A DNA stretch of 64,000 bases from a virus (taxonomy: Duplodnaviria; Caudoviricetes): positions 1-64,000 of IMG/VR virus record IMGVR_UViG_3300012983_000034; one strand, written 5' to 3'. The position numbers were made by a program, and so were the translations under genes. Of this stretch, positions 1,736 through 63,290 are shown one piece after another. Under the pieces are notes generated by a model that worked only from the letters and a program-made list of their open reading frames with translations, had not been told where the DNA came from and searched no databases. Positions within the stretch are counted from its first letter, which is position 1; each line of letters starts with the position of its first letter.

Positions 1736-3292
1736 TTGAGCAACAAGAAAAATAATACAAAAACTAAAGATGTTTCTATATATACAGAGTTGGATTATAA
1801 GAATGACCAAAATAAATTTGAGAAATCTATGAAAACAGGTAAGGTTGATTTCAGTAATTTTCAACGACTTATGATAAGAGATATTTGTACAAATACAAGC
1901 GTTACTGAAACTGGTTGTATAGGTGATATTAGCTTAAAAGATGTAGAGACTGCGCTAAAATATCCAAAACTAGGATGGAAAATTTTACTTGCAGTTTCAG
2001 AACAATTAATGCGAGTCTCACCACATTACTTTAGAATGAATAATCTATATTCTAATATGGCTTCATTTTGTTGGTGGATAGACTTATATGATGTCAAAGA
2101 AAATGTACAGATTGATAAGATAAAGAAATCTTATTCGACTCTTGCAGCAAAATTAGAGAGTATGAATTTAAAACACGAATTCTCTAAAATTATGAAGGTT
2201 ATACCTTATCAAGATATTTATTGTGGGTTGGTATTTGAAAATCAATCTGATTTCTTTTTTCAACAGATAGATTATAAGATTTGTGAACTATATCAAATTC
2301 AAGATGGATTATATAATTTTAGAATTGATTTGTCTCAAATTAAAGCACAAAATCTAAGCGCTTACCCAAATTACGTGCAAAAGGCGTTTATTGATTTAAA
2401 AGATAATATAATAAATCCGAATATTAGTGGACAGTGGTATACACCACCAGCAGATAAACAAGTTTGTTTTAAAATGAATAGTCAATGGTACTTCCCATAT
2501 CCTATCTTAATTGGATTGGTTAAAGATATTTTAGATTTAGACATTTATAAAAAATTAAAATTACAATCTGCTAGAACGGATAACTATAAGGCGATTGCGG
2601 TTGAGGTTCCAATTGATGAAAACTCGGTCGATAAACCGCTGCTTACTCCAGAAACGCTTGGAATTTTTGCAGAAATTAATAGGGAGAGTATGACGGACGA
2701 TATTGGGTTGTTACACACTTTGGGTTCTGATGCTACACCTATTAGTTTTAAAGATTCAAGCAATACAAGAAACAACGTGTCTGATGCTATTGATGAATTG
2801 TATAATTCTTCTGGTATTACAAAGGAGTTGTACAATGGTTCATCATCTGGAACCGCTGTTACATTTTCTATTGAAAATGATTCTGGTTTTGTTTATGGAT
2901 TATATAGACAATTTGAGCGTTGGATAAATCGTTTTATTAAAATTAGAAAATATAATAAGCCGACATTTAAGTTTCTATTTTACCTTTTAGATGTTACGAT
3001 TTTTAATCGTGATAATGTGTCTAAGAGATATAAAGAAGCTGTGTCGCTTGGCGCAACTTGTATAGACCGTTATTTAGCTACGCTTGATTTAACGCCCTCT
3101 CGTACATTAGGAAGTTTCATAACGCATCACGACATATTTAAATTTAATGAAAACTTTATTCCACTCCAAACATCTTATAATTCTTCAGTCGATAATAATA
3201 AAACTGGAAGACCTACAAATAAGAGCCAAAATAAAACTTTAGATGAATCTGGCGAAAAGACAGAAGATTTAGATTCTAATATTGACAGGTAA
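1736..3292 (+). CDS. Portal protein
   Basis: 518 aa, follows terminase; YRQFERWIN and C-terminal GRP motif typical of portals; AGGAGG RBS. Confidence 0.8.
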   Translation: MSNKKNNTKTKDVSIYTELDYKNDQNKFEKSMKTGKVDFSNFQRLMIRDICTNTSVTETGCIGDISLKDVETALKYPKLGWKILLAVSEQLMRVSPHYFRMNNLYSNMASFCWWIDLYDVKENVQIDKIKKSYSTLAAKLESMNLKHEFSKIMKVIPYQDIYCGLVFENQSDFFFQQIDYKICELYQIQDGLYNFRIDLSQIKAQNLSAYPNYVQKAFIDLKDNIINPNISGQWYTPPADKQVCFKMNSQWYFPYPILIGLVKDILDLDIYKKLKLQSARTDNYKAIAVEVPIDENSVDKPLLTPETLGIFAEINRESMTDDIGLLHTLGSDATPISFKDSSNTRNNVSDAIDELYNSSGITKELYNGSSSGTAVTFSIENDSGFVYGLYRQFERWINRFIKIRKYNKPTFKFLFYLLDVTIFNRDNVSKRYKEAVSLGATCIDRYLATLDLTPSRTLGSFITHHDIFKFNENFIPLQTSYNSSVDNNKTGRPTNKSQNKTLDESGEKTEDLDSNIDR

Positions 3293-3297
3293 TATCT

Positions 3298-4017
3298 ATG
3301 GAATATTGTGTTTATAAACATACATCGCCTAATGGCAAGTGTTATATAGGAATCACTTCTATGAATCCACCAGAAAAAAGATGGAAAAATGGTCGTGGAT
3401 ATAGACTGCATCAATATTTTTATAATGCAATTCAAAAATATGGTTGGGATAATTTTAAACACGAAATTCTTTTTGAAGGTTTAACTAAAAAAGAAGCCGA
3501 ACAAAAAGAAGTGGAATTGATTGCTCTGTTTAAATCTGCCGAAAGCAAATATGGATATAATATTTCTTTGGGTGGAAATAGCGTTGGAAAACATAGCGAA
3601 GAAACAAAAAGAAAATTGTCTGTTGCTGCTACTGGCAGAAGGCATACCGAAGAAGAAATTAGAAGACAATCCGAAAAACAAAAAGGTCACATAGTTTCAG
3701 AAGAAACAAAAAGAAAAATTTCTGAGGCTCAAAAGGGTAAACATAAAAATTTTACCGAAGATGGTTTAAAAAGATTGTCAAATTTCAATAAGGGTAGACC
3801 CTGTGCACAAAAGGCTTTAGAAAAAACCAGAAAATCCGTAATTTGTATTGAAACTGGTATTATATATGAATCTTTGCAAGATGTTGAAAACAAAACACAT
3901 ATTAACAGAAAGAATGTGGGCAAGGTGTGCAACGGTGGCAAATATAGGCAGACTGCTGGCGGATATCATTGGATGTTTTATAACGATTATTTATTGACGA
4001 ATAAGGAGGCGGTATAA
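3298..4017 (+). CDS. Free-standing GIY-YIG homing endonuclease with NUMOD3/NUMOD1 DNA-binding repeats
   Basis: YCVYKHTSPNGKCYIGIT; HSEETKRKLS and VSEETKRKISEA repeats; C-terminal VICIETG...TAGGYHW. Confidence 0.9.
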   Translation: MEYCVYKHTSPNGKCYIGITSMNPPEKRWKNGRGYRLHQYFYNAIQKYGWDNFKHEILFEGLTKKEAEQKEVELIALFKSAESKYGYNISLGGNSVGKHSEETKRKLSVAATGRRHTEEEIRRQSEKQKGHIVSEETKRKISEAQKGKHKNFTEDGLKRLSNFNKGRPCAQKALEKTRKSVICIETGIIYESLQDVENKTHINRKNVGKVCNGGKYRQTAGGYHWMFYNDYLLTNKEAV

Positions 4018-5549
4018 TGCAAAATAAAAATATATCCCTCCCCATTTCCTTCTCTGTCAATAATGAGATTTCAGATAAAAATAATAGATTTATTGATGTA
4101 ACAATTGATGTCCTTCATACGGGACTTAATTATAATGGAAGTATTTTTAATAAAGAGGTTGTCGATGAAAATATCGATACAATTAAAAATACTCCAATTT
4201 TAGGGTTTATTACTGAAGTCCCTTATGACGATAAGGATTTCAAGGGGCACGAATATATTATTGCAAAAACGGACAAAGATGGTGTTACACGAAAATACAT
4301 AGGAAGTGCCTATGGCGTAATACCTGAATCGTGTAATCCTCGTTGGATAACTAAGACAACAGATTCTGGTGTAGAACGAGAATTTTTACAGGTAGATGGT
4401 ATACTGTGGACAAAATTTAAAGATGCTACAGATATTATGATAGAGGATGTTGAAAAACCAGAAAGTATGGAGTTATATCCATATGATATTGATGGTTATG
4501 AGAATGAAGATGGTGACTTTGTATTTACCAAGTTTTCTTTTGATGGTTGCTGCATTTTGGGTTCGAAAGTTGAACCAGCGATGGAAAACGCAAAAATTGA
4601 AGTTCAGTTCACTATGAGTGACTTTGTAAAAAGCATTCAAAATGAACTTAACGATAAATATAGTGCATTCACAAAAATAGTGAATGACACAAATACTTTC
4701 ACCGAATCAAATCTGGTGAATGAAAAAACTAATGGAGGTGTAGAAATCATGGAGAATACTGATTTCGCTCAGACTTTGCTTAGTCAATTCGAGGACATCT
4801 CTGCACAAGTAAGACAACACGAAACATTTACAGACAGATGGGGTTATGAATGTGCTCGATATTATGCTGTGGATGTTCAGGAAAATGAAGTGATTGTAGT
4901 TGACGCAAAGAATAACTATAACTACTTTGGTCTTTCATTTACCGTGAATGGTGATAAGGCAGAGATTGACTTTGAAAGCGCAAAAAGAAAGAAGCTTCGC
5001 TACGAAGACTATGAAGATGGTTCTTCTATTGAGGGAGCGTTTGATTTCGGAAAGCATATTGAAGAAATCGAAAACAATGCCTTTGCCAAGGTTGAAGAAG
5101 CAAATGCAAAGGTTTCTGAAGTTGAGGGCAAAGTGTCTGAGTACGAAGCAAAGGTTTCTGAATTTGAAGCAGCAAAGAATGAGATTGAAGAAAAATATAA
5201 TCAAATTAATGCTGAGTTTGAAGAGATGAAACCAAAGTACGAGGAGTTTGTTAAGAATGAACAGATTCGTATTGAGGCTGAGTTGGACGCTCAGAAAGAT
5301 GCAGAATTCACTAAATATGAAGCCGTTTTATCTGACGATGCTGGCTTTGCCGCTCTTAAAGAAAAGAAGTCTGAAATGTCGGTCAAAGAGATTGAAAGTG
5401 AATTGGCAATTATGTTTGCAAGAAAGACTCTTGCACAGACAGATTTTAGCAGAACCAATGACGGTGCTATGACCGCTGGATTGATTGACAACGACGATAA
5501 AGATGGATTCGTTGAAACCAAATATGGTTATATTAAAGTTGGACGCTAA
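4017..5549 (+). CDS. Prohead protease/scaffold protein
   Basis: LHTGLNYNGS, ESMEL and CILG-PAM protease-like motifs followed by an acidic coiled coil; position between portal and capsid. Confidence 0.75.
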   Translation: MQNKNISLPISFSVNNEISDKNNRFIDVTIDVLHTGLNYNGSIFNKEVVDENIDTIKNTPILGFITEVPYDDKDFKGHEYIIAKTDKDGVTRKYIGSAYGVIPESCNPRWITKTTDSGVEREFLQVDGILWTKFKDATDIMIEDVEKPESMELYPYDIDGYENEDGDFVFTKFSFDGCCILGSKVEPAMENAKIEVQFTMSDFVKSIQNELNDKYSAFTKIVNDTNTFTESNLVNEKTNGGVEIMENTDFAQTLLSQFEDISAQVRQHETFTDRWGYECARYYAVDVQENEVIVVDAKNNYNYFGLSFTVNGDKAEIDFESAKRKKLRYEDYEDGSSIEGAFDFGKHIEEIENNAFAKVEEANAKVSEVEGKVSEYEAKVSEFEAAKNEIEEKYNQINAEFEEMKPKYEEFVKNEQIRIEAELDAQKDAEFTKYEAVLSDDAGFAALKEKKSEMSVKEIESELAIMFARKTLAQTDFSRTNDGAMTAGLIDNDDKDGFVETKYGYIKVGR

Positions 5550-5599: not shown

Positions 5600-6127
5600 A
5601 TGGCAGTACATGTAGTTTGTGAAACCTCGAACCTTAGAGCTGTGCATTATGCAAAGCGTATTTGGGATGCGGTTTCTAAAGTTGATATTGACAATGGCAC
5701 ACTTGGCTATCTCGAAGATAAGGAAGATGGCGGTGTGATTTATGATTTTAATGCTGGTACCAAGGAGGGTGCTCCTGTGGTTCTTGTTCATATGCCTGAG
5801 TGGACTGAAGACACTTCTCGTATGACTAATCAGCGCAAGGACAAGTTTACCAATGTAGCAGGTCGTCCATTCCGTGCATTTGAACTTGCAGAGGGTGACG
5901 AGTTTGCTCTTTCTGCCGAAGGCTTTGTAGGAACTCCTGAGATTGGCAAGTATGTTTCTATTAATGCAGACGGAAAACTCGCTGTTGCTGATGCTCCTGT
6001 TGAGGGTGCCGCAATGGTTGGTAAAATTATGAGAAAGCGTCAAGTTGGCTCTACTCTTGTAACCGATGTTCGTACTTACGGCTATGCTCGTATGATGTAC
6101 ATGGTTAAAGTAGAGACTTTGGCTTAA
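5600..6127 (+). CDS. Capsid decoration/head protein
   Basis: 175 aa directly before the major capsid gene; high-expression codon usage; strong RBS. Confidence 0.6.
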   Translation: MAVHVVCETSNLRAVHYAKRIWDAVSKVDIDNGTLGYLEDKEDGGVIYDFNAGTKEGAPVVLVHMPEWTEDTSRMTNQRKDKFTNVAGRPFRAFELAEGDEFALSAEGFVGTPEIGKYVSINADGKLAVADAPVEGAAMVGKIMRKRQVGSTLVTDVRTYGYARMMYMVKVETLA

Positions 6128-6149
6128 TTTATTAAGGAGGTAATAGAAT

Positions 6150-7184
6150 ATGAGAACTAATTTCAGTGTAGAAGAAGCAAAGGTTCTTGACCTCGTTAAC
6201 GATTTGTCCAGAGGTGACTTTTCGCTTCACGTAGATAAGGAAAAATGTACTCGTGCTGACCTTGAGCAGCATCTGAGAGATAAGATTAATAACGAAATTC
6301 TGAAGGGTGCTACACTCTATCAGGCATTCCGTCGTAACAATATTGTTATTTTCGAGATTATTGAGGAGATTGTTAACCTTACTATCTCTAATGACTTTGC
6401 AGACATCCCATTTATGGACGCATTTGTAGAGTTTAAGAATCGTGCTCTTGGCGACAAGACTGCTTGGTACTCTGAGGGCAAGAGCTATGTGACGGTTGCT
6501 TCTTTCGCTGGCAATCACTGGGATACCAACCGTGAGGCTCTTGATGCAGGTGAAGAGTATACTCTTGAAAAGGAGTGGGTATATATCCACGTTTATGATG
6601 AGTTCGAGAGATTCCTTCTTGGCATCGCTTCTCTTGAAAGACTTACTGATGTAATTTATAAGTCTTTCAACAAGTATATTAAGGAAAGAACTTATGTAAT
6701 GTTCCAGAGCGTTATGGGCGTTGTTCCTGCTGAGTTCACTGCAAATGGCAACTCTGAAGAAGCAGTAGGCGATTTGTGCGACCTGATTCAAGCTGCTGGC
6801 GGCTATTCCAACCTTACCATTGCTGGTACAAATGGCGCTCTGAGAAAGCTGGCAAAGATTATTCCTGATAACTATTTTGCAGATTCTCAGCGTGAGGCTA
6901 AGGCAAAGACTGGCAATATCGGTGAGTGGGAAGGCAAGCGACTGATGGTTATTCCTCAGGTAATTAAAGAAGGCACTTTTGAACTCGCTCTTGACAACGA
7001 TACAATCTTTGTTATGGGTGGAGATGTTAAGCCTATTAAGGTTGAGTTCATTGGCGATACTCGTACTCAGAATGTTACAGACCATAGAGTTAATAACGAT
7101 ATGACTTATGACCTTCAGGTTCAAACACTCTTTGGTATGGGCTTCGAGCTTCCTCAAGCATTTGGATGCTTTAAGTTTGCTTAA
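6150..7184 (+). CDS. Major capsid protein
   Basis: 344 aa, strong codon bias, IGEWEGKRLMVIPQ motif, synteny. Confidence 0.8.
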   Translation: MRTNFSVEEAKVLDLVNDLSRGDFSLHVDKEKCTRADLEQHLRDKINNEILKGATLYQAFRRNNIVIFEIIEEIVNLTISNDFADIPFMDAFVEFKNRALGDKTAWYSEGKSYVTVASFAGNHWDTNREALDAGEEYTLEKEWVYIHVYDEFERFLLGIASLERLTDVIYKSFNKYIKERTYVMFQSVMGVVPAEFTANGNSEEAVGDLCDLIQAAGGYSNLTIAGTNGALRKLAKIIPDNYFADSQREAKAKTGNIGEWEGKRLMVIPQVIKEGTFELALDNDTIFVMGGDVKPIKVEFIGDTRTQNVTDHRVNNDMTYDLQVQTLFGMGFELPQAFGCFKFA

Positions 7185-11567: not shown

Positions 11568-11602
11568 GAGTAGGGGTTTACTCCCCTACTCTATTTTATT
11601 TT
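11568..11602 (+). terminator. Rho-independent terminator
   Basis: GAGTAGGGG-TTTACT-CCCCTACTC then T-rich tail. Confidence 0.75.
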
Positions 11603-15268: not shown

Positions 15269-18200
15269 GTGTTGAAATATATGAGTGATTATAGGATTTT
15301 AGTCGGAACAGAACTTAAGACAGATGGTATTACAACTGCTCTTAATAGTTATAAGGGTAATGTTAAAGTAGGTGCAATATTAGACACAACTAATATTACC
15401 ACGGCGATAAATGGCTATAAGGCGAAGGCAATTACTGTTGATACTTTGCTTAATACAAATGGTATCACGGAGAAAATAAGAAGTTATACTCCGCCTAAAA
15501 AGATTCATCTTGAATCTGACCTTAGTACCGTTGGTATTGATGCCAAGATAAATAATTATATACCCAAAAAACCTATTAAAGTTGATGCAGAATTAACTGC
15601 GTCTAGTATTAATCAGCAGATAAGAGGCATAAAGCCAAGCGAAACTATTAAGCTTGATGCCAAATTAAATAACAATGCTATCACTGATGCGATAAGAAAA
15701 TATAAGGCTGCTGCACCAATTAAGGTAATGGTTGACCCAGACTTTAGCGAAGCTGGCGCAAAGATAAGTAATTATCAAATGCGCAATATGCTTAAAGTTA
15801 ATGTTAAGCTGAACAAGACTGCAATTGATAGCCAAATAAAAAATTTTCAAACAAGTAGCAAGATTGAAGTTGGTGCTAAATTAAGAGACAACGCTATTGA
15901 AACTGCAATAAAAAGATATGCTGGCAAAGAGCTTGTTCCTATTACAATAGACTTTAAAGTTGGCGAGACAAGGGAAATTACAAATAAGATAAATGAGTAT
16001 AAAAATAAATCAGTTTCTATTTCCGCCAAATTACAGCCAGCTCAAACTGGATTTGATAGTGCGATAACGAAAAAACCAGTAAAGGTTCAGGCTACATTAG
16101 ACCCAGATGGTATTGATAGTGTAATAGAAAAATTTCATCCAACAAGCAGAATTAAAGTTGATGTAAAATTAGAACCAAAAGATGTTAATGGGCAAATAAC
16201 AAATCTGCCAAAACCAACCGAAAAGATTAATGTCGATGTGGGATTGGATAACGACAGCATTAACAAGGCGATATCGGCGTTTAAACCCACTACTCGTCTT
16301 AATGTTGGTGTTGATTTAAAGACAGATGATATTAATAAGCAGATAGAGTCTATACATCCAACATCTATGGTTAATGTTGGAGTGAACTTGGATAATAGCG
16401 ACATTGATAAAGATACGGGAAAGAAAAGAGTTCAGACCCCTATCGAAGTTGATGTAACTTTAAACACTGAAAAAATTAACGAACAGATTAAAGCCTTTAA
16501 AACACAAAGCAAGATTGCGGTTGGTGTTAAACTTGATTTTGCTAGCCACAAGGGTGGTCAGGTTGGTATTCCGCAGCAAATAAAAGATTATAAAACCAGT
16601 GCAAAAATCAAAGTTGGCGTTCAGCTTGATAAGGATGATATTGCACAACAGATTGGACAAGTTAAGGTAGATTCGCCTATTAAACTTGGTGTCGAACTAG
16701 ACCCAGATGGTATCAACAATGTTCAAAAACAAATTGATAGTTTTAGAGAACAGATTAAAGCCATTGGAAATATCAAGATAAATCTTGGTGGAAACAATAC
16801 GGCATCTGGAACCGCTGGTAAGGGTAACGTTAAAGTTGCTGGTGTATCACGAGATTTTGTAGAGGCAGATATCAAGATTACAGATATGGCAAACCATATA
16901 AAGAGTTTGCAGTCTGCTTTAAAAAAAATTGGCTTTAATAAATCTTCGATAGACTCTATAACTAAGGAGTTTGAAGAACTTGATGTTGTAGTAAAAAGTG
17001 TTACAACCCGTTTAGACAAAGCTGGAAATCTTTCGCTTACTATAAAAGGTTTAGATGAGTATGGACGAGCTGTTACAATGATGAAGGGTGTCGATAAAAA
17101 AGGCGGTCTTACATCATTAGGCACAAGTGTTTCACAATCTTTTAAAGAGACGGAAGCTTCTTTTGCTAGGCTAAAAACTATAGCCAATCAAATGAAGGGT
17201 TTTAAGGTTCAGCTTGCAGGACTTGATTCGAAAAAAGATGCGAATAAGATTGCAGAAGTTACCTCTCAATTAAACAAGCTGCAATCCGAATATCGTGATT
17301 TATATAACATAACACGGCAAAATCTTAATACAAGTCAATTAGATGAATTAAAACAAAAGTCTATTGAAACTGGTAGAGCAGTTAAAGTTGCTAAGGCGGC
17401 AATGGCTGATAAGGTAGCCTATAATAAAGAACAAACAGAGATAAGAAAAACAAGAGATGAATATCAGAAGCTTGTCAAGATAGCTAATTCGATGAAGAGA
17501 ATTAAGGTTACATTGGCTGGTCTTAACCCAGAAAAGGACAAGCAAAGAATTGCTGAACTTACTTCTCAATTAAAAACTCTTGAAACTGAATATCGTGATT
17601 TATTTGTCTCAAATAAAGGAAAGTTTGACACAAAGCAATTAGACGCATTAAAACAAAAGTCTATTGAAACTGGTAGAGCTATAAAAGATGCAAAAGCTAA
17701 AGTTGCCGATACTGCTGCATACGACAAATTACAGGTTGAGATAAAAGAAACAAAAGATTCATATCAGAAGCTTATTAAAATAGCTAATGAAATGAAAAAA
17801 CTCAAAGTCGAGCTTGTTGGTCTTGATGCCGAGAAAGACAAACAAAGAATTGCAGATATTTATCTACAGTTGAAGAATCTTAAAACAGAGTATAAAACTT
17901 TGTTTTCTTCAACAAAACAAGGCTTTAGCACGGAACAGTTTAATGCATTAAGACAAAAGGCTCTTGAAACCGCTCAGGCTGTAAAAGAAGCTAAGTCTGT
18001 AATGTCTGACAATAGAACAAATTTGGCAAGTGCCATCAAAAATAATTTGAGCGGATATGAAGCTCAAGTAAAAGTTGTTGGTGGCAACATACAAAAACTT
18101 GTCAATACACCAGTTGAGCTTGAATCAGCTTTTAACAGAGTAAAAAAAGCGTTGATTGATATGCAAAACGCTTCTGATAATGAAGCGTTAATTGCGGCAG

Positions 18201-18961
18201 AGGAAAGATATCAAAATGCCTTAAAAGAAACGGAAGCTCAACTCAGAATAAACCAAGCGGCAGAGAATCAAGAGGGCGGCACGGGCATTGAAAACTTTGC
18301 AATAAAAAAGGAAGCTGCATTAATAAGGATAAGTAATTTGTTTGAAGATGGTTCTCAGGCTGCGAACAGATTTGGAGCAGAAGCAAGAGAGCTTTTGGCA
18401 GAGTTGAATAAGCTTGGCAGTGTTTCTGGTATTGATAAGGTTAATGCTAAGATTGCTAACCTAGAAAAAAAGATTAAGAAATCTAATCTGCAAACCAAAA
18501 CGTTTAGTACGAGATTAAAAGACCAGTTTTCTAAGTATTCACAATATATATCAATAGCTTCTGTTTTCATGTATGCTACTCAGGCTATGAGAAGTATGTT
18601 TGAGCAGGTTAAGCTAATTGACTCTGCAATGACGGAGCTTAAAAAGGTTACTGATGAAACAGATGCAACTTATAACAAATTTTTAAGTAATGCAGCCAAA
18701 AGGTCTAAGGAAATTGGAACCACTATCGATGGTCTTGTAAGTTCTACTGCTGATTTTGCAAGATTAGGATATGGATTTAAAGACGCACAAGGACTTGCTG
18801 AAGTAGCAAATATTTATGCAGTTGTTGGTGATGAAATTGAGGGTGTTGAAGGTGCAACAGAAAGTTTAATTTCTACAATGGCTGCGTTTAAAGATGAAAT
18901 GAATGGCATGAGCAATAGCGACTTTGCCATGAGTATCATTGACAAATTTAATGAATTAGGT
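15269..18961 (+). CDS. Tape measure protein, exon 1
   Basis: IDSAMTELKKVTDET...FARLGY...IIDKFNELG TMP core; N-terminal ~22-aa repeats; reading frame continues in exon 2 after the intron. Confidence 0.9.
17170..18000 (+). repeat. Three ~300-bp (100-aa) tandem repeats within the tape measure gene
   Basis: AAACAAAAGTCTATTGAAACTGGTAGAGC at ~17351 and ~17651, diverged copy at ~17951. Confidence 0.75.
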
Positions 18962-20198
18962 AAATTAATTGCCTATCAATATAGTAATATATTGTTGGAA
19001 AGTGGCTATAACGGTTAAAGGCTGGAGACAGCTCAGACCGTGGAAAGACTTAGTATTTGTAAAATATATAATAAGAGGATTAAATTGAAAAGAAAAGATT
19101 TAACGGGACAAAAGTTTGGACATTTAACTGTTGTCGAAATGTTGTATCATTATAACGGTGGTAGACATACGCATTGCAGGTGTATATGCGATTGTGGCAA
19201 TGAGCACATAATTAGTGCTGACCACTTACAAAAAAGAAAAAATGTTTCGTGTGGTTGCATGAGCAATCATTATAGAACAATAAATAATCGCACAAACGAA
19301 ATAGGCAATAAATATGGTAGATTAACAATTATTGATATTGACTATAATGCGAAACCTTCTATTGCCATTTGTGAATGTGATTGTGGTAAAATTATAAGAG
19401 CAATAAAAGCCGATGTTGTAAGTTGTCATACTCAGTCGTGTGGTTGTTTACAATCTGAAATGGCATCTCAAGCAAATGAAAAAGATTTTGCAGATGTTGT
19501 ATCTGATTCTGGAGTTATTCTAAAAAGAAGGGCACATAAAAACTCTCACGGCGTATGGTTGTGGTATTGTGACTGTCCCATTTGTGGTAATGAATTTATT
19601 GCTATGCCAGCAAGGGTAATGGAAAATCATACAACATCTTGCGGCTGTAAGCTTAACTCTTCTAAAGAAAGAATAATTGAAAATTATTTAAAAGAATTAA
19701 ATATAAAATATTGCAAACAAAAGAGATTTAAGGATTGTAAATATTCTTATACATTGCCATTTGATTTTGCCATTTATAATGATGATGAAACATTAAAATG
19801 TCTAATCGAATACGACGGACAACAACATTTTAGACCCATTGATTTCTTTGGTGGGATTGATGGTTTTGAAAAAACAAAAATAAGAGATAATATTAAAAAT
19901 CAATATTGTAAAGACAACGACATACATTTATTAAGATTAAATTATCTTAATACAGATAATGAAATAAAAGAAATAATTACAAATACTATTTATCCGTAAC
20001 GACTGTAACGGTTTATATGGTAACATATTGACCTTCGCCACTCCCCTACTCTCTTTTAGAGACAAGAGGGTGAAGATTCAGTCTGAACTGCAACTATAAT
20101 CTAATAATGAAATTGCAGAATAAGGTAGAAATGCCTTGTCGCTATATAACAAATAAATATATAGTCAGTAGGTTTGGCAAACCGAAAGTAACAGCTTG
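18962..20198 (+). ncRNA. Complete group I intron (IA-like) in the tape measure gene
   Basis: P1 TAGGT^AA/TTGCCTA with U.G at the splice site; P2 CAATATA/TATATTG; P3 AGTGGC(19001)/GCCACT(20037); P4 ACGGT/ACCGT; P5 GCTG-GAGA-CAGC; P7 GACTG(20001)/CAGTC(20079); P9 hairpins; terminal G20198. Splicing restores DKFNELG|NNFAISS in frame. Confidence 0.93.
19040..19999 (+). CDS. Intron-encoded homing endonuclease: Cys-rich Zn-binding repeats plus Vsr/DUF559-like nuclease domain (likely start ~19085)
   Basis: Three CxCxCG...SCGC-type repeats; LPFDFAIY...IEYDGQQHF...RDNIKN...LLRL. Confidence 0.85.
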   Translation: MERLSICKIYNKRIKLKRKDLTGQKFGHLTVVEMLYHYNGGRHTHCRCICDCGNEHIISADHLQKRKNVSCGCMSNHYRTINNRTNEIGNKYGRLTIIDIDYNAKPSIAICECDCGKIIRAIKADVVSCHTQSCGCLQSEMASQANEKDFADVVSDSGVILKRRAHKNSHGVWLWYCDCPICGNEFIAMPARVMENHTTSCGCKLNSSKERIIENYLKELNIKYCKQKRFKDCKYSYTLPFDFAIYNDDETLKCLIEYDGQQHFRPIDFFGGIDGFEKTKIRDNIKNQYCKDNDIHLLRLNYLNTDNEIKEIITNTIYP

Positions 20199-23100
20199 AA
20201 TAATTTTGCCATTTCGTCGGGCGGCATTGGCGAAGCTATGGAGAGGTCTGCCTCTTCAATGGTGGCTGCAAACAATACGATTGATGAAACTCTGGCGTTA
20301 ATTACGGCGGCTAACACCGTTGTGCAAAATCCCGATGCTGTAGGCACCGCCTTTAAAACGATTTCCATGAGAATTCGTGGTGCAAAAACCGAACTTGAAG
20401 AAGCAGGTCTTGAAACCGAAGGTATGGTGCAATCTACCGCCAAACTCCGTCAGGAGATTATGGCTCTCTCTGGTGTTGATATCATGGAGGCTGATGGACA
20501 AACATTTAAATCAACATATGTCATTTTGGATGAGCTTGCTCTAAAATGGAAAGACCTTTCTGACATTCAGCAAGCTACTATTACAGAATTAATAGCTGGT
20601 AAGCGTCAGGGTAATATCATTTCCAGCTTAATGAATAATTTCCAAACAGCCAGAGACGCATTGGAAACATCTCTTGGAGCTTCTGGTTCTGCTATGAAAG
20701 AACACGCCAAATGGAGCGAATCTCTTGAGGCTCGTTTGAATAAGCTTAAAGCTACTTGGCAAAGTTTATCTCAATCGTTTTTAAATTCCGATTTCTTAAA
20801 AATTGTCATAGAATCACTTAAAATATTAGTAGATATTCTTGATAAAGTAACAAGAAAACTTGGCACTTTTGGTACAATTGGTCTTGGTGCTGGTATTTTT
20901 GGATTATTTAAAAACAGAAGTAGTTTTTCTGGCATATTAGGCTCCCTTTCTTCGTTTGGTCAATTAGCATCGGAAGCGTGGCGTTCTGGTGGTAAATTAA
21001 TTGATAGATTTAAAGGCGTTGGGAAGGCTGCTGGTATGGCTGGTGGCGATATTGCAAAATCATTTACTGGTTCGTTGTCTGGAATAGTTGGTGGCATTGG
21101 GCTGGCGGTATCCGCAATCGGTCTTATAGTTAGTGCTTATAAAAATTACAGAGAAGAGATTTCTAGGGCAAGACAAGAAACCATACAATCAAGCAATGAA
21201 TTTTTGGATGCTGCTGGTTCATTCGAACAAGCTTATATCAAGTATTCTGGAAGAACAGATTTAACCGTTGAAGAAGAGGCTGAATTAGAATCTGCAATTA
21301 AAGGCACTGTAGATGCTCTTGGTGATAAATCTAGCGCTTTGCAAGATACTGTCAATAGCAGCAATGACTATATCGCATCTCTTGAGGCGATTACAAAGGC
21401 GGAGTTGAAAGCTGCCGAAAGTATAGCAAAAGAAAAGAAAGTCGCTGCTGAAAAAGAATTAAAAGATGTTGTTAAGCCAGATATTCTTGGTGCATTAGAT
21501 GCTAAAACTAGTTCTATAAGCGTTGTAATTGAAAGAAGAAAAAAAAATAAGGATAATCCAGACGATGCAAGCGAAGATGAAAAAATTGCACGAGAAGCTG
21601 CTGGTAAATACTACGGATTCATAAATTCTGATAGGGCAATAAAGCGTTATGGATTTCAATTGCCAAAGAATGCAAGCGTAGAAGAAATTGTTGATTATTA
21701 TTATACTCTTATTGAAGCCAAAAATAGATTGATAGAAGAAAATTTGACTGAGAATGATACATTTGATGCAATAAACGTGGCTATTAATAAGGTGTCGGAT
21801 GCGGTTGCAACATATGAAAACGGCTTATATGACCTTGCAAAAGCACAATATGAATCACAAAATGGCATTCCAAAGACGACTGAAGAATATCTTAAGATGC
21901 GAGAGAGTATTCTTAATGAAATTGGCGGAACGACTGATACTAGAAAAACAATAGCTAATACATTAGACTCTGAATACGGTCAAATGTTTGATTTGACATC
22001 TGCTGAGATTCAATCTAAAAAACTTATCGGCGTTGTCGATGATTTTGATGAAGAAAGAGCAAGAGAAGTTGAAGTACTTCTTAATATGAGAACCGCCGTA
22101 AATAATGGCGAATGTAGTGTTGGAGAATATATTTCTGAATTTGATAAAGTCGATGCTATTGCGAGAGGCTTTGGAAAAGAAGACTACAAAGAAATAGCGT
22201 TAGCTTTTGGTCTTGATACTGATTCAATAAAAGAACAATATAAAGACCTAAAGATAAAATTAACAGATGATTATTATAAGATTGAAATGTCTGATGATGA
22301 TGCTAAGACATTTTTGGATAATTTAAGTTTTAGAGAATTGTCTGCTTCCAGAGATTTGTTCAGCTCCAATAATGAAGATTTCAAGAATATTCTTAAGGGA
22401 TATAGCGATACTCTTAATGAAGCAAAAAAAGAAAGTGTAGATTTTTCTAAGACTGTATTTGGAAATATAGATACAAATGCAAGAAAAACACTCGAATGGA
22501 CAAGCGAAAATCTTGAAAAGTACAAAGATGAGCTTATGTCTTTTGAGCCAGATGGTGCTAAATGGGAAGATGTAAAAAAGAATTATGAAGGAACCATTTC
22601 TACCGTTATGGGGATGTGGGACACTTTTGAAATAGATGGCAAAAAAGTTGATATTGCATTCTCCCCCATGCTTCAAACTGACAGCGGTGTAGAAGTTTTA
22701 TCTGGTGGAACTTTAGATAGTTATATTAAAGAGTTAATTGCCAAAGCTACTGAAGATGGCAAGTGGACAAATGAAGAACTTCTTAAACTTGATGCGGAAG
22801 GTCTTGAAATTGACGGTCAAAAGATAAAGGGTGTTTTGGCAGATATCGGCAATACTGCACAACAAACTGCAAGTCAAATGCACTTTGTTGGTAAAGATGG
22901 TGCTCTTGCATTAGCGGAAAAAGAGCTTTTTGCAATAATTGAAGCTCAAGCAAAAATCAATGATGCATTAAATTTTAGTGCAAGTATAGAAGTAGATAAA
23001 ACAGCACTTGAAACTTTTAATACTGCGCTCGAAGAATCTGCTTCTGCAATGGGTTTGTCAGAAGAGTCGATAGATAGCCTAAGTGCGAAGTATAAAAACC

Positions 23101-26100
23101 TTGAAAGTTATGACCCTTCTCTCTTATTTGAAGCGACTGCTAATGGTGTTAAAGTAAATCGAGAAGAACTTGCAAAGCTTGAAAAAGAATATAATAACTT
23201 ATCAAAAACTAAGGTACAAGAACATCTTGATACTCTTACCGATAAATATAACGATGTTACGGCAGAAATTGACAAGTGTACTAATGCCGCTGAGAGAGCA
23301 AAGTTAATTAATGAGCGTGAAACATATAAAACAAAAATTGAAGAACTTGCCGAATACCAATCACAATTAGAAGGTGTAACTGGAGCTTATCAGAGATGGA
23401 TTGATGCTCAAAATGCACCAGAAAATTATGAAGGTTATGAAGCGGTTGCTACTAGTCGTGAAGATATCAAGGACGAAATTGGCAGAGGATTCATAAGTAA
23501 TGCATCAAAAGAATATATCGATTTGTTGTCTGGAAAGGATTTGCAAGGCGGAACAATTGATGATTATGCTAATGCTTGGGGTAAACTCGATGACAAAATT
23601 ACTGGTGCTGGGCATAGTATAAATGACTTCTTTACTGTTAATGACGATGGTGATATTACTGCCACTGGTATTGACCGATTCTTTAAGAGTTTACAGACAG
23701 ACTTTAAGGGTAGTGTTGCAAACTTTGACAAAGAGACTAAAAAGTGGACATACGACTTTGGCTCAGAAAATCTTGAAAAAATTCAAGAAAAATGGGGTAT
23801 CGGTATTGAAGCTATCGAGTTATTGCTTGAAGCTGCTGTTTCTGCTGGATATGACATTGACTGGGGCGGCATTCTTGACGGAATAGACTTAGATACTTCT
23901 AATTTTGAAACTTTGGTATCTGCTGCTGAAGTCGCACAAGAAGCTTTTAATAAACTCGATGGCGTTGATGATGTTAATTTTAATTTTACTGCAACTGGTG
24001 TCAAAGAAGCTACTACCGAAGTTGATAAAGCACGAGAAGCATACAATAAACTTATAACTAATAAGGACGGCACTATTAATCTTAATGCTAATGGAGCCGA
24101 AGAGATGCGACTTATGCTTGCAACTCTGCTTATTCAAAAACAACAGCTCGAAGATTCTAATATTGTAATGAATGTAGATACTTCTCAACTTGATAAATCT
24201 CAAGAACATATTGGGAAGGCTATCAATGCTGTAATAAACTTTAGAGAAAAATATAAAAACTTAGAAATTGCAGTAAGTACTGGTCAAGGCATAGAAGAGG
24301 CTAAAACAGAGCTTAATACTGCAATGACAGAATTGCAAGGTCTCGGTGATAAAGGTGTTGATATTGCGGCTCAACTTATGTTGGGTGAGGGCACAGATGG
24401 TGCCACCCTTAAAAGTAAAGTAGATGCCGCAATTAAAGCGGTTGGTAGTCAAGATATTAAAGTTGGTTGTAAGCTTGATGAAACAGCGCTTGGTACTTTA
24501 AATTCTCAAGTATTAACAAATTTTAATCCCGAAGCTACTGTTACAATTACTAAAATAGATGAATCTTTAGTTAATCAATATATTACTACTGAGAAAACTG
24601 CTGATGGTACAGTTAAGTGGAAGAATGACGAATCATTAGTTGTTGAATTCCAAAATAAAACCCACGAAGCAAAAGGTATTGTTAATTGGGCTAATAATGT
24701 AGAAAAAGTTAAAACAAATTTTTCTGCCAACGGTACAGTTAAGTGGTCGAGTGGCAACAAAGTTAAAGTCAGCGTTGTATCAGAAGCAAAAGGCACAGCC
24801 AATGCAAGTGGTACTACTGGAAGCTCTGGTCGTGCATTTGCTCGTGGCGATTGGGGAATTAAAGGTAATGGCACTGCTCTTGGAGGCGAGTTGGGTCAAG
24901 AACTCGTCGTTAGAGACGGTAAATTCTTTACCATAGGCGATAAAGGTGCTGAGTTCTTCCATTATAAGCAAAACGATATTATATTTAATGCGGCTCAAAC
25001 TGAATCTCTGTTCAAGTATGGTGGAATTAAAGGTGCAAAGCCAAGAGGTACAATGCTTGCTGGTGGTACCGCATTTGCAGAAGGAAGGGCGTTTCCTTGG
25101 AGCGCCACAGGAAATACATCGAATTTTGCGTCTAATCGTCAAAACACGAAGACAGAAACGAAAACAACCAAAAAAAATAATTCTGTCACAACAACCACAA
25201 CAACATCTTGGAGTGCGAATGCAAAAGAGTCTGATTTTGTAAATAATCGAAACTCAAAAGCTCAAGAATCTTCTTCTGGCAAATCTTCTTCTTCCAAGTC
25301 AAAAGAGACAGAAAAAGAGTTTGAAGAAACAATTGACTGGGTTGAAGTTGCGCTTAAACGCATTCAAAGAGAAATAGATAACCTTGACCAAAAAGCTGGA
25401 AATGTTTATAAAACTTGGTCTTCAAGAAATAATGCTTTAGCCAAACAAATAAGCGAGGTTGGAGACGAAATCAATCTTCAAAAACAAGCTTATGAACGAT
25501 ATATGCAAGAGGCTAATAGCGTTGGTCTCGATGAATCTTGGGCTAAAAAAGTTCGTGATGGTACTATTGATATAGAGACTATAACGGATGAAGACTTAAA
25601 AGAAAAGATAGATGACTATCAAGATTGGTATGAGAAAGCCCTTGATTGTAAAGATGCCATTGAAGAACTCAAAGAGACCGAAGCCTCTCTTTATGCACAA
25701 CGTTTTGATAATATTCAGTCTCAATATGATGCCATTTTACAAGGTTATGAGCATACAGAAGCTATGCTTAATGAATATATCGCTCAAGCAGAAACAAAGG
25801 GTCATATCGTAAGTAAGAAATATTATGAAGCGTTGATTAGTAATGAAAAGTCTAATATTTCTGAGCTTAAAAAAGAACAATCTGCATTAATTGCCGAAAG
25901 AGACAAGGCTGTTGCAGATGGAAAGATAGAAAAATATAGCGAAGAATGGTATCGCATGTGTAATGACATTGACAGTGTTACTCAGGCGATAGAAGAATCG
26001 ACAACTGCTCTTCTCGAATATGACAATGCTATGCGTGAAATAGACTGGTCTATTTTCGACTTAATCCAAGAGCGTATTTCTAGTGTTACCGAAGAGGCTG

Positions 26101-27815
26101 ATTTCTTAGTCGAATTGATGAGCAACAAAAAACTCTTTGATGATGATGGTAAGTTGGCAAGCCAAGGCTTGGCTACTATGGGATTACACGCTCAAAACTA
26201 TAACACGCATATGTATGCGGCTGATACATACGGTGCTGAAGTTGCTAAGCTTGATAAGCAGATAGCTAAAGACCCGTATGACCAAGAGCTTATCAATCGC
26301 AGAAACGAACTTCTTGAATTGCAAAGAGAATCTATACTTGCTGCTGAAGACGAAAAAAATGCAATTCGTGATATGGTTGAGGAAGGTATTAATCTTGAAC
26401 TTGATGCATTGCAAGAGCTTATCGACAAAAAGAACGAAGAGCTTGAGAGTGAGCGTGACCTTTACGAGTATCAGAAAAAAGTAAAAGAACAAACAGAAGA
26501 AATTGCTTCTCTTGAAAAGCAAATGGCTGCTTACAGCGGTGATGATAGCGATGAGGCAAAGCAAAAGATACAACAAATCAAGGTTGACCTCGAAGCCGCT
26601 CGTCAAGATTTGCAGGAAACAGAATATGATAAACTCATTGACGATACTTCTGCTATGCTAGATACTCTATACAATGAATACGAGCTTATTCTAAATACTC
26701 GTCTTGATAATATTGACCACCTACTCGAAAGCGTAATCGAAAGCATCAATGCTGCTGCGAGTGCTGACGGTACTATTGCAAGCGCCCTTGGTTCTGAGGG
26801 TGCAATAGCAATTGCCGTAAGCAATAATGCAACTTCAATCAAGGATACATTAGCATCTGAAGCAAAGAATGTTGGACTCACCCTCTCTTCTGCAATGAAT
26901 AATATTTGGAGTGTTGGTGAAGGTAATGCAAAGTCTGTATTGACAATGTATGGTGAAGACTTTAGAACAAAGTCCACCACCATAATTACGACATTGAACG
27001 GCATAAAATCTGATATTGCTGCAATGGTCGATGATGTTGATAAGGACGCAAAGAAGAAAACCACTGCCAATAAGACTGCTACTTCTGCAAAGAAGAGTCC
27101 GACTACTACCACCACTACTAAAAAACCTGATACCGATAAACCGACAACAACAAAACCAACCACATCTTCTGGCGGTGATGGAAAGCCAAAGGTTGGTGAC
27201 AAAGTTAAGTTTATTAGTGGTAAGTATTATTACGATTCACAAGGTAAAAAGCCACTTGGCTCTAAATATCAGGGAAAAGAAGTTTATATTACCAATATTA
27301 ATACAAAGAGTTGGGCGACTCATCCTTACCATATTAGTACTGGAACTAAACTTGGAAAAGGCGACTTGGGTTGGCTTAAACTTAATCAAATTAGTGGTTA
27401 TGCAACTGGCAAGAAGAAAATACCTAACAATGAATATGCTTGGACACAAGAAAACGGTCAAGAATATATAGTTAGACCTTCTGATGGTGCTATCCTTACA
27501 CCAGTTGCTAAAGACGATAGTATTCTTAATGCTGCTGCAAGTGGTAATATTTGGAATATGGCTAATAATCCTGCTGAGTTTATTAAAGATAATCTCAAGT
27601 TGGATAACTCAAATATTCCCAATGGTTCAAATGTTAATAATACTTATTCACAACACATTGATAATGTTGTGTTTAGGATGGATAATGTTAAGAACTATGA
27701 AGAGTTGTTATATGCTATGCAAAAAGATAAGAATTTTGAAAAATTAATTCTTTCTATGAGCGTTGATAGATTGGCTGGCAAGAGCAGTCTTGCAAAGGGC
27801 AAGTCTATCAGATAG
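20199..27815 (+). CDS. Tape measure protein, exon 2
   Basis: NNFAISSGGIGEAMERSAS...VGTAFKTISMRIRG...IAGKRQ; long coiled coils; SH3-like domain and GYATG near the C-terminus; no RBS at the ORF start. Confidence 0.9.
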   Translation, partial: NNFAISSGGIGEAMERSASSMVAANNTIDETLALITAANTVVQNPDAVGTAFKTISMRIRGAKTELEEAGLETEGMVQSTAKLRQEIMALSGVDIMEADGQTFKSTYVILDELALKWKDLSDIQQATITELIAGKRQGNIISSLMNNFQTARDALETSLGASGSAMKEHAKWSESLEARLNKLKATWQSLSQSFLNSDFLKIVIESLKILVDILDKVTRKLGTFGTIGLGAGIFGLFKNRSSFSGILGSLSSFGQLASEAWRSGGKLIDRFKGVGKAAGMAGGDIAKSFTGSLSGIVGGIGLAVSAIGLIVSAYKNYREEISRARQETIQSSNEFLDAAGSFEQAYIKYSGRTDLTVEEEAELESAIKGTVDALGDKSSALQDTVNSSNDYIASLEAITKAELKAAESIAKEKKVAAEKELKDVVKPDILGALDAKTSSISVVIERRKKNKDNPDDASEDEKIAREAAGKYYGFINSDRAIKRYGFQLPKNASVEEIVDYYYTLIEAKNRLIEENLTENDTFDAINVAINKVSDAVATYENGLYDLAKAQYESQNGIPKTTEEYLKMRESILNEIGGTTDTRKTIANTLDSEYGQMFDLTSAEIQSKKLIGVVDDFDEERAREVEVLLNMRTAVNNGECSVGEYISEFDKVDAIARGFGKEDYKEIALAFGLDTDSIKEQYKDLKIKLTDDYYKIEMSDDDAKTFLDNLSFRELSASRDLFSSNNEDFKNILKGYSDTLNEAKKESVDFSKTVFGNIDTNARKTLEWTSENLEKYKDELMSFEPDGAKWEDVKKNYEGTISTVMGMWDTFEIDGKKVDIAFSPMLQTDSGVEVLSGGTLDSYIKELIAKATEDGKWTNEELLKLDAEGLEIDGQKIKGVLADIGNTAQQTASQMHFVGKDGALALAEKELFAIIEAQAKINDALNFSASIEVDKTALETFNTALEESASAMGLSEESIDSLSAKYKNLESYDPSLLFEATANGVKVNREELAKLEKEYNNLSKTKVQEHLDTLTDKYNDVTAEIDKCTNAAERAKLINERETYKTKIEELAEYQSQLEGVTGAYQRWIDAQNAPENYEGYEAVATSREDIKDEIGRGFISNASKEYIDLLSGKDLQGGTIDDYANAWGKLDDKITGAGHSINDFFTVNDDGDITATGIDRFFKSLQTDFKGSVANFDKETKKWTYDFGSENLEKIQEKWGIGIEAIELLLEAAVSAGYDIDWGGILDGIDLDTSNFETLVSAAEVAQEAFNKLDGVDDVNFNFTATGVKEATTEVDKAREAYNKLITNKDGTINLNANGAEEMRLMLATLLIQKQQLEDSNIVMNVDTSQLDKSQEHIGKAINAVINFREKYKNLEIAVSTGQGIEEAKTELNTAMTELQGLGDKGVDIAAQLMLGEGTDGATLKSKVDAAIKAVGSQDIKVGCKLDETALGTLNSQVLTNFNPEATVTITKIDESLVNQYITTEKTADGTVKWKNDESLVVEFQNKTHEAKGIVNWANNVEKVKTNFSANGTVKWSSGNKVKVSVVSEAKGTANASGTTGSSGRAFARGDWGIKGNGTALGGELGQELVVRDGKFFTIGDKGAEFFHYKQNDIIFNAAQTESLFKYGGIKGAKPRGTMLAGGTAFAEGRAFPWSATGNTSNFASNRQNTKTETKTTKKNNSVTTTTTTSWSANAKESDFVNNRNSKAQESSSGKSSSSKSKETEKEFEETIDWVEVALKRIQREIDNLDQKAGNVYKTWSSRNNALAKQISEVGDEINLQKQAYERYMQEANSVGLDESWAKKVRDGTIDIETITDEDLKEKIDDYQDWYEKALDCKDAIEELKETEASLYAQRFDNIQSQYDAILQGYEHTEAMLNEYIAQAETKGHIVSKKYYEALISNEKSNISELKKEQSALIAERDKAVADGKIEKYSEEWYRMCNDIDSVTQAIEESTTALLEYDNAMREIDWSIFDLIQERISSVTEEADFLVELMSNKKLFDDDGKLASQGLATMGLHAQNYNTHMYAADTYGAEVAKLDKQIAKDPYDQELINRRNELLELQRESILAAEDEKNAIRDMVEEGINLELDALQELIDKKNEELESERDLYEYQKKVKEQTEEIASLEKQMAAYSGDDSDEAKQKIQQIKVDLEAARQDLQETEYDKLIDDTSAMLDTLYNEYELILNTRLDNIDHLLESVIESINAAASADGTIASALGSEGAIAIAVSNNATSIKDTLASEAKNVGLTLSSAMNNIWSVGEGNAKSVLTMYGEDFRTKSTTIITTLNGIKSDIAAMVDDVDKDAKKKTTANKTATSAKKSPTTTTTTKKPDTDKPTTTKPTTSSGGDGKPKVGDKVKFISGKYYYDSQGKKPLGSKYQGKEVYITNINTKSWATHPYHISTGTKLGKGDLGWLKLNQISGYATGKKKIPNNEYAWTQENGQEYIVRPSDGAILTPVAKDDSILNAAASGNIWNMANNPAEFIKDNLKLDNSNIPNGSNVNNTYSQHIDNVVFRMDNVKNYEELLYAMQKDKNFEKLILSMSVDRLAGKSSLAKGKSIR

Positions 27816-62421: not shown

Positions 62422-62497
62422 TGGCTGCCCCTATTGGATTCGAACCAATGATGCAGGAGTCAAAGTCCTGTGCCTTAACCAGCTTGGCGAAGGGGCA
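62422..62497 (-). tRNA. tRNA-Gln(TTG)
   Basis: Cloverleaf, loop CTTTGAC, GTTCGAATC, encoded CCA. Confidence 0.92.
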
Positions 62498-62502
62498 ATA
62501 TA

Positions 62503-62577
62503 TGGTGACGCATACGAGAATCGAACTCGTGTTACCGCCTTGAAGGGGCGGTGTCTTAACCGCTTGACCAATGCGCC
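62503..62577 (-). tRNA. tRNA-Glu(TTC) with C33
   Basis: CCGCC-CCTTCAA-GGCGG anticodon arm, encoded CCA. Confidence 0.88.
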
Positions 62578-62581
62578 ATAT

Positions 62582-62658
62582 TGGTATGCCTGAGAGGATT
62601 CGAACCTCCGACCCATTGATTAAAAGTCAATTGCTCTGACCAACTGAGCTACAAGCAC
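62582..62658 (-). tRNA. tRNA-Lys(TTT)
   Basis: ATTGA-CTTTTAA-TCAAT, encoded CCA. Confidence 0.92.
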
Positions 62659-62662
62659 ATAT

Positions 62663-62750
62663 TGGTGCAAGGCATTTCCTCCTTGCCAGAGAGCTTTTCA
62701 TCTCTTATATATCCCCAAAAATATATAGCCTTTTGAAACGAGGATGCGCC
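62663..62750 (-). ncRNA. Atypical tRNA-like element ending in CCA
   Basis: Occupies a tRNA slot in the array; four small stems; lacks D- and T-loop consensus. Confidence 0.4.
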
Positions 62751-62759
62751 CAAGTGGGC

Positions 62760-62836
62760 TGGTCTGGACAACAGGATTTGAACCTGCGGCATCTACATCC
62801 CAAATGTAGCGCTCTACCAAACTGAGCTATGTCCAG
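62760..62836 (-). tRNA. tRNA-Pro(TGG)
   Basis: CTACA-TTTGGGA-TGTAG, encoded CCA. Confidence 0.92.
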
Positions 62837-62839
62837 ATG

Positions 62840-62915
62840 TGGAGCTAGATAAGGGACTCGAACCCTTAACATCTTGATTACAAATCAAGCCCTCTACCAA
62901 TTGAGATAATCTAGC
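62840..62915 (-). tRNA. tRNA-Thr(TGT)
   Basis: CTTGA-TTTGTAA-TCAAG, encoded CCA. Confidence 0.92.
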
Positions 62916-62919
62916 ATAT

Positions 62920-63013
62920 TGGCGCAGAGGGTGGGATTCGAACCCACGTGCCAGCTCATCACTGACAAACTGTTTTCAAGACAGCCTCGTTATGACCGCT
63001 TCGATACCTCTGC
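62920..63013 (-). tRNA. tRNA-Ser(TGA)
   Basis: GCTGT-CTTGAAA-ACAGT, long variable arm, G73, encoded CCA. Confidence 0.9.
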
Positions 63014-63051
63014 ATAGTAAGTGAGTATTTGCCCTCACTAACGGCATTTAA

Positions 63052-63177
63052 TTAGCCTTTGAGCTTTCTAATTCTTCGTTCGAGCTTACGAACGATTCTA
63101 CCATTCTCTCTACCTCTCTCCTTGAGAAGAGCAATTCTACACTCACACTTCAAAATTTCAAGTTCAACTGCACTCAT
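63052..63177 (-). CDS. 41-aa basic protein inside the tRNA cluster (not in ORF track)
   Basis: MSAVELEILKCECRIALLKERGRENGRIVRKLERRIRKLKG; AAGGAG RBS. Confidence 0.65.
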   Translation of the reverse strand: MSAVELEILKCECRIALLKERGRENGRIVRKLERRIRKLKG

Positions 63178-63213
63178 TTGTATTTCTCCTTTGTTTGTTT
63201 TGAATTTATAATA

Positions 63214-63290
63214 TGGTGGGTCTTCAGGGACTTGAACCCTAAACCTGCTGGTTATGAGCCAGATGCTCTGACCAATTGAGCTAAAGACCC
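63214..63290 (-). tRNA. tRNA(CAT), probably Ile2 (lysidine type)
   Basis: TCTGG-CTCATAA-CCAGC; paired G1-C72; no initiator GGG/CCC stem; encoded CCA. Confidence 0.85.

Follow-up and report, generated by a model that had tools for sequence, protein, structure and literature searches.

The window analyzed here covers positions 1–64,000 of an IMG/VR virus record of 109,934 bp, from an uncultured, SPbeta-like gut phage. Two long open reading frames (ORFs) lie on its plus strand, one at 15269–19018 (1249 aa) and the other at 20196–27815 (2539 aa), and between them is a third ORF of 319 codons (19040–19999). When the 1237 nt at 18962–20198 are removed, the two long frames fuse into a single frame of 3769 codons (15269–18961 joined to 20199–27815), which has one stop codon, at its end. 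The product is a tape measure protein that reads SIIDKFNELG|NNFAISSGGIGE across the join, and the in-frame fusion at DKFNELG|NNFAISSGG put forward in the original prediction is thus confirmed. At the nucleotide level the spliced exons would read GAATTAGGT|AATAATTTT, and the predicted peptide spanning the junction is FNELGNNFAISSGGIGEAMER. Exon 1 (15269–18961) comprises 1231 codons ending in GAA TTA GGT, and exon 2 (20199–27815) starts with AAT AAT TTT and comprises 2538 codons plus the stop. In the unspliced RNA, the exon 1 frame is closed after 19 codons of the insert by the TAA at 19016–19018. At 3769 aa, the spliced protein (window 15269–27815) is very long even among SPbeta-like phages, and its N-terminal 500 aa are composed of repeated units of ~35 aa.

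Both exons resemble known tape measure proteins. SPbeta-like phages, Basilisk-like phages and Sundance have tape measure proteins similar to the C-terminal 170 aa of exon 1, and exon 2 starts midway through the Pfam PhageMin_Tail core (profile positions 87–199 of 201), the second half of which it encodes. Brevibacillus phage Sundance has one annotated tape measure gene in which the sequence matching the end of exon 1 runs directly into that matching the start of exon 2 (32306|32307). A 500-aa probe over the junction gave a single, unbroken alignment in Sundance, MT837120 and the loci L010–L014, L020, L021, L025 and L027. L010–L014, which are IMG/VR relatives, are 69–72% identical to the probe (over ~460 aa in L010 and L011). 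Over the 120 aa that flank the junction, the identity is 82.5% for L010 and 79% for L011, both of which are intron-less, and the alignment is gap-free at the junction, where they read DKFNEVSNNFAISSGGIGEAMERS and DKFNEIGNKFAISSGGIGEAMKRS, respectively. These uninterrupted homologues thus run gap-free through the exact exon boundary that had been proposed, and they encode one piece here, not the two separate proteins that would have spoken against the original prediction.

The insert at 18962–20198, on the plus strand as are all of its parts, has the helices, junction, family profile and covariation of an IA-like group I intron. P1 (18957–18975) is formed by the end of exon 1, UAGGU (18957–18961), and the guide GCCUA (18971–18975), which places U18961 opposite G18971 in a U.G pair at the 5′ splice site; its loop (18962–18970) contains a P10 strand. 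P2 (18977–18994) is a hairpin of 7 bp with a GUAA loop. This is followed by the 5′ strand of P3 (AGUGGC, 19001–19006), whose partner is GCCACU at 20037–20042, and by P4 (19011–19041, pairing 19011–19015 with 19037–19041), which encloses P5 (19020–19024 with 19029–19033, GAGA loop). In P6, GGA (19042–19044) is paired with 19993–19995, and in P6a, 19051–19060 is paired with 19979–19988, with the ORF inside the P6a loop. Here, the last codons of the ORF double as the 3′ strands of P6a (19979–19988) and P6 (19993–19995), and the stop codon (19997–19999) is in J6/7 directly before P7. This agrees with the position proposed earlier for the ORF, namely in the P6 region with its stop next to the R element.

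The 3′ half of the intron contains the remainder of the core and a peripheral domain. The 5′ strand of P7 (19999–20005; R element AACGACUG) consists of A19999, a bulged C20000 and GACUG (20001–20005), and it pairs with 20079–20083 and, beyond the bulge, through A19999 with U20084. Between P7 and the 3′ strand of P3 is P7.1 (20010–20033), the extra hairpin of IA-type introns, with 10 bp, one mismatch and a GUAA loop. P8 (20043–20070) pairs CCC..CUCU with AGAG..GG around an internal bulge, although this pairing is approximate. J8/7 (UGAAGAUU) then leads into the P7 3′ strand, CAGUCU (the S element; 20071–20084 for both). The peripheral 3′ domain (20088–20183) is made up of P9 (20088–20093 with 20113–20118), P9.1 (20120–20139), P9.2 (20142–20164) and a last hairpin (20171–20183), and the intron ends with the terminal G at 20198, the 3′ splice site. 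Energy folding of the 5′ half alone recovered P1, P2, P4 and P5, and that of the 3′ half alone recovered P7.1, P9, P9.1 and P9.2 (z ~ −2.7 in each case).

All structural elements named in the original prediction are present, among them the U.G pair in P1, P3, P4, P5, P7, the hairpin between P7 and P3 and the terminal G, most of them with covariation. The exception in strength is P10: a pairing exists in the window copy, but it is weaker than claimed, with three contiguous pairs, a bulged A and then five pairs, and by itself it is not significant in AT-rich sequence. A single hairpin, P7.1, lies between P7 and P3′ and no second P7.x hairpin was found there. The intron likely belongs to the IA subgroup and, because it has just one P7.x hairpin, the assignment applies to IA as a whole, as IA1, IA2 and IA3 are not distinguishable.

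The intron is one of a family represented more than 100 times in contigs from viral metagenomes. A pattern taken from short, ORF-less inserts retrieved at least 118 stretches in viral contigs, and an HMM built from six ORF-less copies gave 127 matches (E up to 1e-3) across the collected loci. Some of these matches are full-length and ORF-less, and others are divided in two by an ORF, as in the window copy. Among ~170 loci, the family profile matches the window at 19988–20198 (E 2e-26) and 18996–19063 (E 3e-6). When the whole 110-kb genome was searched with a profile of ORF-less relatives, this locus only was found (E 3.6e-31 and 9e-10). Short DNA matches to the 3′ part at 11580, 12948 and 72269 were considered as further introns and rejected, as they represent a terminator hairpin and AT-rich chance matches. 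The terminator-like hairpin (window 11568–11600; GAGTAGGGG..CCCCTACTC, then a T run) has 18 of 19 bases in common with the P3′/P8 segment of the intron (20040–20058), probably by chance.

Covariation was assessed in 27 distinct ORF-less members collected with nhmmer and aligned with MAFFT; the helices of one member were projected onto the alignment columns and the pairs were counted. Standard pairs occupy 88.7% of cells, compared to 63.5% in shuffled alignments (0 of 500 reach the observed value) and 34–39% when the partners were slid, and 53 of the 57 pairs show changes on both sides. Pairing is 99% for P4, 98% for P5, 100% for each of P6, P7 and P9, and 94% for P7.1, with several pair types per helix. 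P3, which crosses P7 to create the pseudoknot characteristic of group I introns, is 78% paired, even though one subgroup of the alignment is out of register by one column, and all six of its pairs have changed on both sides. P8, P9.1 and P9.2 aligned less well (65–79%), with P8 being 65% paired in the MAFFT alignment. The outer pair of P7, past the one-base bulge, is A-U in 16 members, G-C in 9 and C-G in 2, so that it is formed in 27 of 27. The neighboring G-C and A-U pairs of P7 are invariant in all 27, and this G-C we take to be the guanosine-binding site from the layout of the Tetrahymena and Twort introns. The P7.1 loop is likewise GUAA or GCAA in every member. Overall, ~125 nt of non-coding sequence 5′ of the ORF and ~200 nt 3′ of it are conserved and covary as RNA, and the compensatory changes over more than 100 copies imply selection on the fold.

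The pairing of the guide with the exon changes in step with the insertion site. At six sites, the guide/exon pairs are GCCUA/UAGGU, GCCC/GGGU, GCCUC/GAGGU, GCCAC/GUGGU, GCUC/GAGU and GCCGAC/GUCGGU. Here, the guides of the relatives track the changes in the exon, and the first base is always the G of the U.G pair. The last base of the intron is G in the 8 of 8 members with mapped junctions, and P10 has 3–6 contiguous pairs in most of these, with 4–6 bp in most relatives. At one locus, L022, the reading frame alone allows either G3996 or G3999 as the 3′ splice site (L022:3996–3999); its P10 of 6 bp favors G3996, which reproduces the FNEVSNNEAISSGG of the intron-less relative L020.

The standard model for group I introns does not recognize this family. 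Neither at the gathering score nor with E relaxed to 10 did Rfam RF00028 (Intron_gpI) match the window, its halves, the genome or any of seven related loci, ORF-less relatives included, and the result was the same for ORF-less members searched in a 616-nt stretch. In the positive control, the three orf142 introns of Staphylococcus phage Twort scored 63–101 bits, with orf142-I2, a proven ribozyme, at 97 bits. In a small search, the family HMM was colinear with this orf142-I2 intron between J5/4 and P7′ (E 1.2e-5), and it gave no match in the Twort terminase region. In the three orf142 introns, I1–I3, the sequences AACGACUA (P7 5′ strand) and GAUAUAGUCUGAAC (J8/7 and P7 3′ strand) are almost identical to the family consensus, and both groups have a GUAA-capped P2 and a GUAACA..UUG 3′ end. 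In contrast, P4–P6 and the P9 periphery are unlike in the family, which also has a single P7.1 hairpin with a GNRA loop, and RF00028 recognizes the Twort introns and not this family. A common core combined with a differing P4–P6 and P9 periphery thus probably explains the Rfam miss. We take the miss to mean that a single model covers only part of a diverse class and do not count it against the fold, and the group I assignment is kept on the strength of the covariation and of the resemblance to the Twort introns, which the Rfam model detects.

The ORF in the P6a loop encodes a homing-type nuclease, in agreement with the endonuclease named in the original prediction. The gene (19085–19999, plus strand) specifies 304 aa from a probable TTG start, preceded by the ribosome binding site AAGAGGA at 19073–19079. 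The N-terminal part of the protein consists of three Cys-rich repeats and the Vsr-like domain is C-terminal. Matches to PHROGs labeled as HNH, homing or intron-encoded nucleases range from E 4e-39 to 1e-17; as no HNH motif was seen in the 304-aa protein, the HNH label seems to be a generic one. Over its C-terminal 136 aa, the protein shares 39% identity with the Twort intron-encoded protein B (IepB), which resides in a terminase intron; IepA is encoded in the Twort terminase introns as well. Matches to Pfam DUF5889 and DUF2726 fell below the cut-offs, and phmmer gave no significant match between the nuclease and PDB sequences.

Modeling was used to place the nuclease in a fold class. A model of the domain from 16 sequences had a pLDDT of 86, and its top Foldseek matches were BstEII, Vsr (1cw0; probability 1.00, TM 0.60) and the catalytic domain of I-Bth0305I (3r3p; probability 0.98), with weak E-values of 0.008–0.02. 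Lower in the ranking were restriction-like folds of the R2 and TnsA type, also with weak E-values. The invariant residues are the D in FDF, E-x-D-G-x-x-H and a later D. These residues, together with the structural matches, place the modeled domain with the EDxHD nucleases, so that by fold class the 304-aa protein is a Vsr-like homing nuclease, and the residues would map onto the EDxHD set. The prototype of this group is I-Bth0305I, from a group I intron in the recA gene of phage 0305phi8-36 (Taylor et al. 2011, PMC3239194; PDB 3R3P). Both proteins are intron-encoded and have a DNA-binding N-terminal part followed by a Vsr-like C-terminal domain. They differ in that the N-terminal part of the present nuclease has three Cys-rich repeats and not NUMOD/HTH motifs, and in that its ORF is in P6a and not P5. 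The nucleases encoded by the L022 and L026 inserts at the tape measure site used in the window have, by eye, the same motif and, in each, a different N-terminal part. Outside the window, the genome of the phage has, at ~81829–82065 and 90330–90572 on the minus strand, Cys-rich repeats that are 32–46% identical to the N-terminal repeats of the nuclease (tblastn E 1e-11 and 2e-9), and these two loci may represent related nucleases that are free-standing.

The site occupied in the window is occupied in many other loci as well. In L016 and L018, the same tape measure site contains an ORF-less homologue of 278 nt, and in L022 and L023, a homologous insert of 1.77 kb with different ORFs; the site is filled in at least 20 further loci. 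The short inserts are all visibly homologous to both ends of the window insert. L019, L024 and L026 have further short inserts a few dozen codons 3′ of the present site. In L026 (IMGVR_UViG_3300021387_000240, 2397–4729), three inserts are located within ~70 codons of one tape measure gene: the one at the same site is 1.6 kb of a different RNA, with no match to the family HMM and with the nuclease ORF mentioned above, and the two downstream are ORF-less family introns (4148–4411 and 4461–4729). Inserts of 1.6–2.4 kb are also present at other codons of the tape measure core in L001 (MT835469.1), L015 (4379–6302) and L017 (1577–4000). That of L015 has a full family intron at its end (6001–6302), preceded by ~1.6 kb of other sequence, and those of L001 and L017 have no match to the family HMM.

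Across the collected loci, at least 58 of 102 family 3′ ends adjoin, within a few bases, sequence homologous to the tape measure exon of the window. The exon starts cluster at residues ~1163–1170, 1224–1226, 1232, 1281–1284, 1291–1297 and 1367. Residue 1232, the site in the window, is used in more than 20 loci whose proteins are 28–62% identical to that of the window, and two or three introns occur in a single gene in L019, L026, L094, L116 and L138. When bacterial genomes were scanned with a pattern, most matches were due to chance and six were real family members (L215, L236, L234, L230, L196 and L289), found in gut Firmicutes and a Treponema MAG. The named hosts are Thomasclavelia cocleata DSM 1551, Butyrivibrio sp. 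INlla21 and Clostridium, Faecalimonas and Treponema MAGs, with L289 being one of the six bacterial-contig loci beside these five; presumably, the members on bacterial contigs are in prophages. An ORF-less copy of the family compared by blastn with 50,697 phage records gave no match.

Taken together, we are confident that 18962–20198 is a mobile, IA-type group I intron inserted into the tape measure gene within its conserved core. It is intact-looking and occupies a recurrent homing site in this core. From its sequence, the intron is predicted to splice and to do so unaided, and the nuclease is predicted to be active on a target at this site. In the late transcript, the P1–P6 and P6′–P9.2 parts would fold around the ORF-bearing P6a loop, and the guide GCCUA would pair with the end of exon 1 to create the U.G splice pair. 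A guanosine bound at the invariant G-C of P7 would then attack the 5′ splice site, after which the P1 loop would align exon 2 through P10 and the terminal G20198 would be exchanged. Spliced RNA would yield the 3769-aa tape measure protein and unspliced RNA a fragment of 1249 aa. In a co-infection, the nuclease presumably cuts intron-less tape measure alleles near GAATTAGGT|AATAATTTT, and repair would copy the intron in.

An intron derived from group I that has lost autonomous splicing is a different, and unlikely, reading of the same RNA. Such an intron would need a helper, either its own nuclease acting as a maturase or a host factor, or it would be a decaying copy that lowers the yield of tape measure protein. 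The failure of the Rfam model fits with this idea, as do the compact P4–P6 domain and the weak P8 and P10 of the window copy. However, all core helices are intact in the window copy, the phage needs the full tape measure protein, and compensatory changes have been kept over more than 100 copies.

It is more improbable still that splicing plays no part here and that the two long ORFs are distinct tail genes flanking a free-standing homing nuclease gene. Free-standing nuclease genes are common among phage structural genes (PMC10448857), and a TTG at 20196 could serve as the start codon of the second ORF. Yet the break would then fall inside the PhageMin_Tail core, which is one gap-free piece in all intron-less homologues, and such a nuclease gene would account neither for ORF-less copies of the RNA at the same site nor for the ~125 nt before and ~200 nt after the ORF that covary as RNA. 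That another type of intervening element is present, an intein or a group II intron, has a negligible probability: an interrupted gene is all that speaks for it. The insert is not an intein, since its length of 1237 nt is not divisible by three and translation continuing from exon 1 would terminate after 19 codons. A group II intron was rejected as well, there being no reverse transcriptase ORF, domain V, group II boundary motifs or Rfam group II match. The mobile group I intron is consequently the reading that we retain.

The original prediction implied that introns in tape measure genes are rare, and this was overstated, as such introns were described in 2008 (PMC2504315) and splicing of one was shown in 2023 (PMC10448857). 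Tourasse and Kolsto (2008) reported IA1 and IA2 group I introns, TMP-IVS1, IVS2 and IVS3, at three sites of the tape measure gene in prophages of the B. cereus group, and also listed an intron in the tape measure gene of Lactobacillus phage JCL1032 (PMC2504315). In the B. cereus group, related introns have been re-targeted to different sites and different introns occur at one site (PMC2504315). Compared by description, several features are shared with the present family: the introns are IA-type, they lie in a conserved part of the tape measure gene at several sites per gene, P1 adapts to the site, and some copies have nuclease genes while others do not. The nuclease genes differ, being GIY-YIG and H-N-H in the B. 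cereus introns and Vsr-like here, and the present host is an uncultured, SPbeta-like gut phage with a tape measure protein of 3769 aa.

The second precedent is vibriophage ICP1, where the intron-split tape measure gene was demonstrated to be spliced using RNA-seq and RT-PCR (Barth et al. 2023, PMC10448857). In the same study, the tape measure gene is termed "frequently interrupted" (Barth et al. 2023, PMC10448857). As in the window, the ICP1 tape measure intron carries a homing nuclease gene, and the nuclease content of the intron differs among isolates in a constant context. The differences are that the ICP1 nucleases are HNH-3 and its host is Gram-negative, and that splicing was seen in ICP1, whereas the present intron is known from sequence.

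As the principle has been in print since 2008, the gain here is incremental, and only three points are mildly new: how large the family is, its specialization in tape measure genes and the fact that Rfam does not detect it. The related copies at neighboring sites illustrate the retargeting of the guide. It is an evenly balanced proposition that these copies make up a large, IA-like ribozyme lineage which is specialized in tape measure genes and which no curated model recognizes. This proposed lineage would have at least 6–7 sites in ~200 codons, up to three introns per gene, and FNE.G|NNFA as the most occupied site, with at least three different intron/nuclease combinations there. If true, the lineage would merit its own RNA family model, and the tape measure core would be a natural system in which one ribozyme is re-targeted to neighboring sites.

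There are also consequences for annotation and for the biology of the phage. Gene callers would report two ORFs and an "HNH endonuclease" at this locus and pipelines based on Rfam would miss the intron, where the product would be one protein of 3769 aa. The tape measure gene would then be another essential late gene that depends on RNA splicing. Elsewhere in the window, at 62425–63290 on the minus strand, there is a cluster of seven tRNA genes (Rfam, 55–72 bits).
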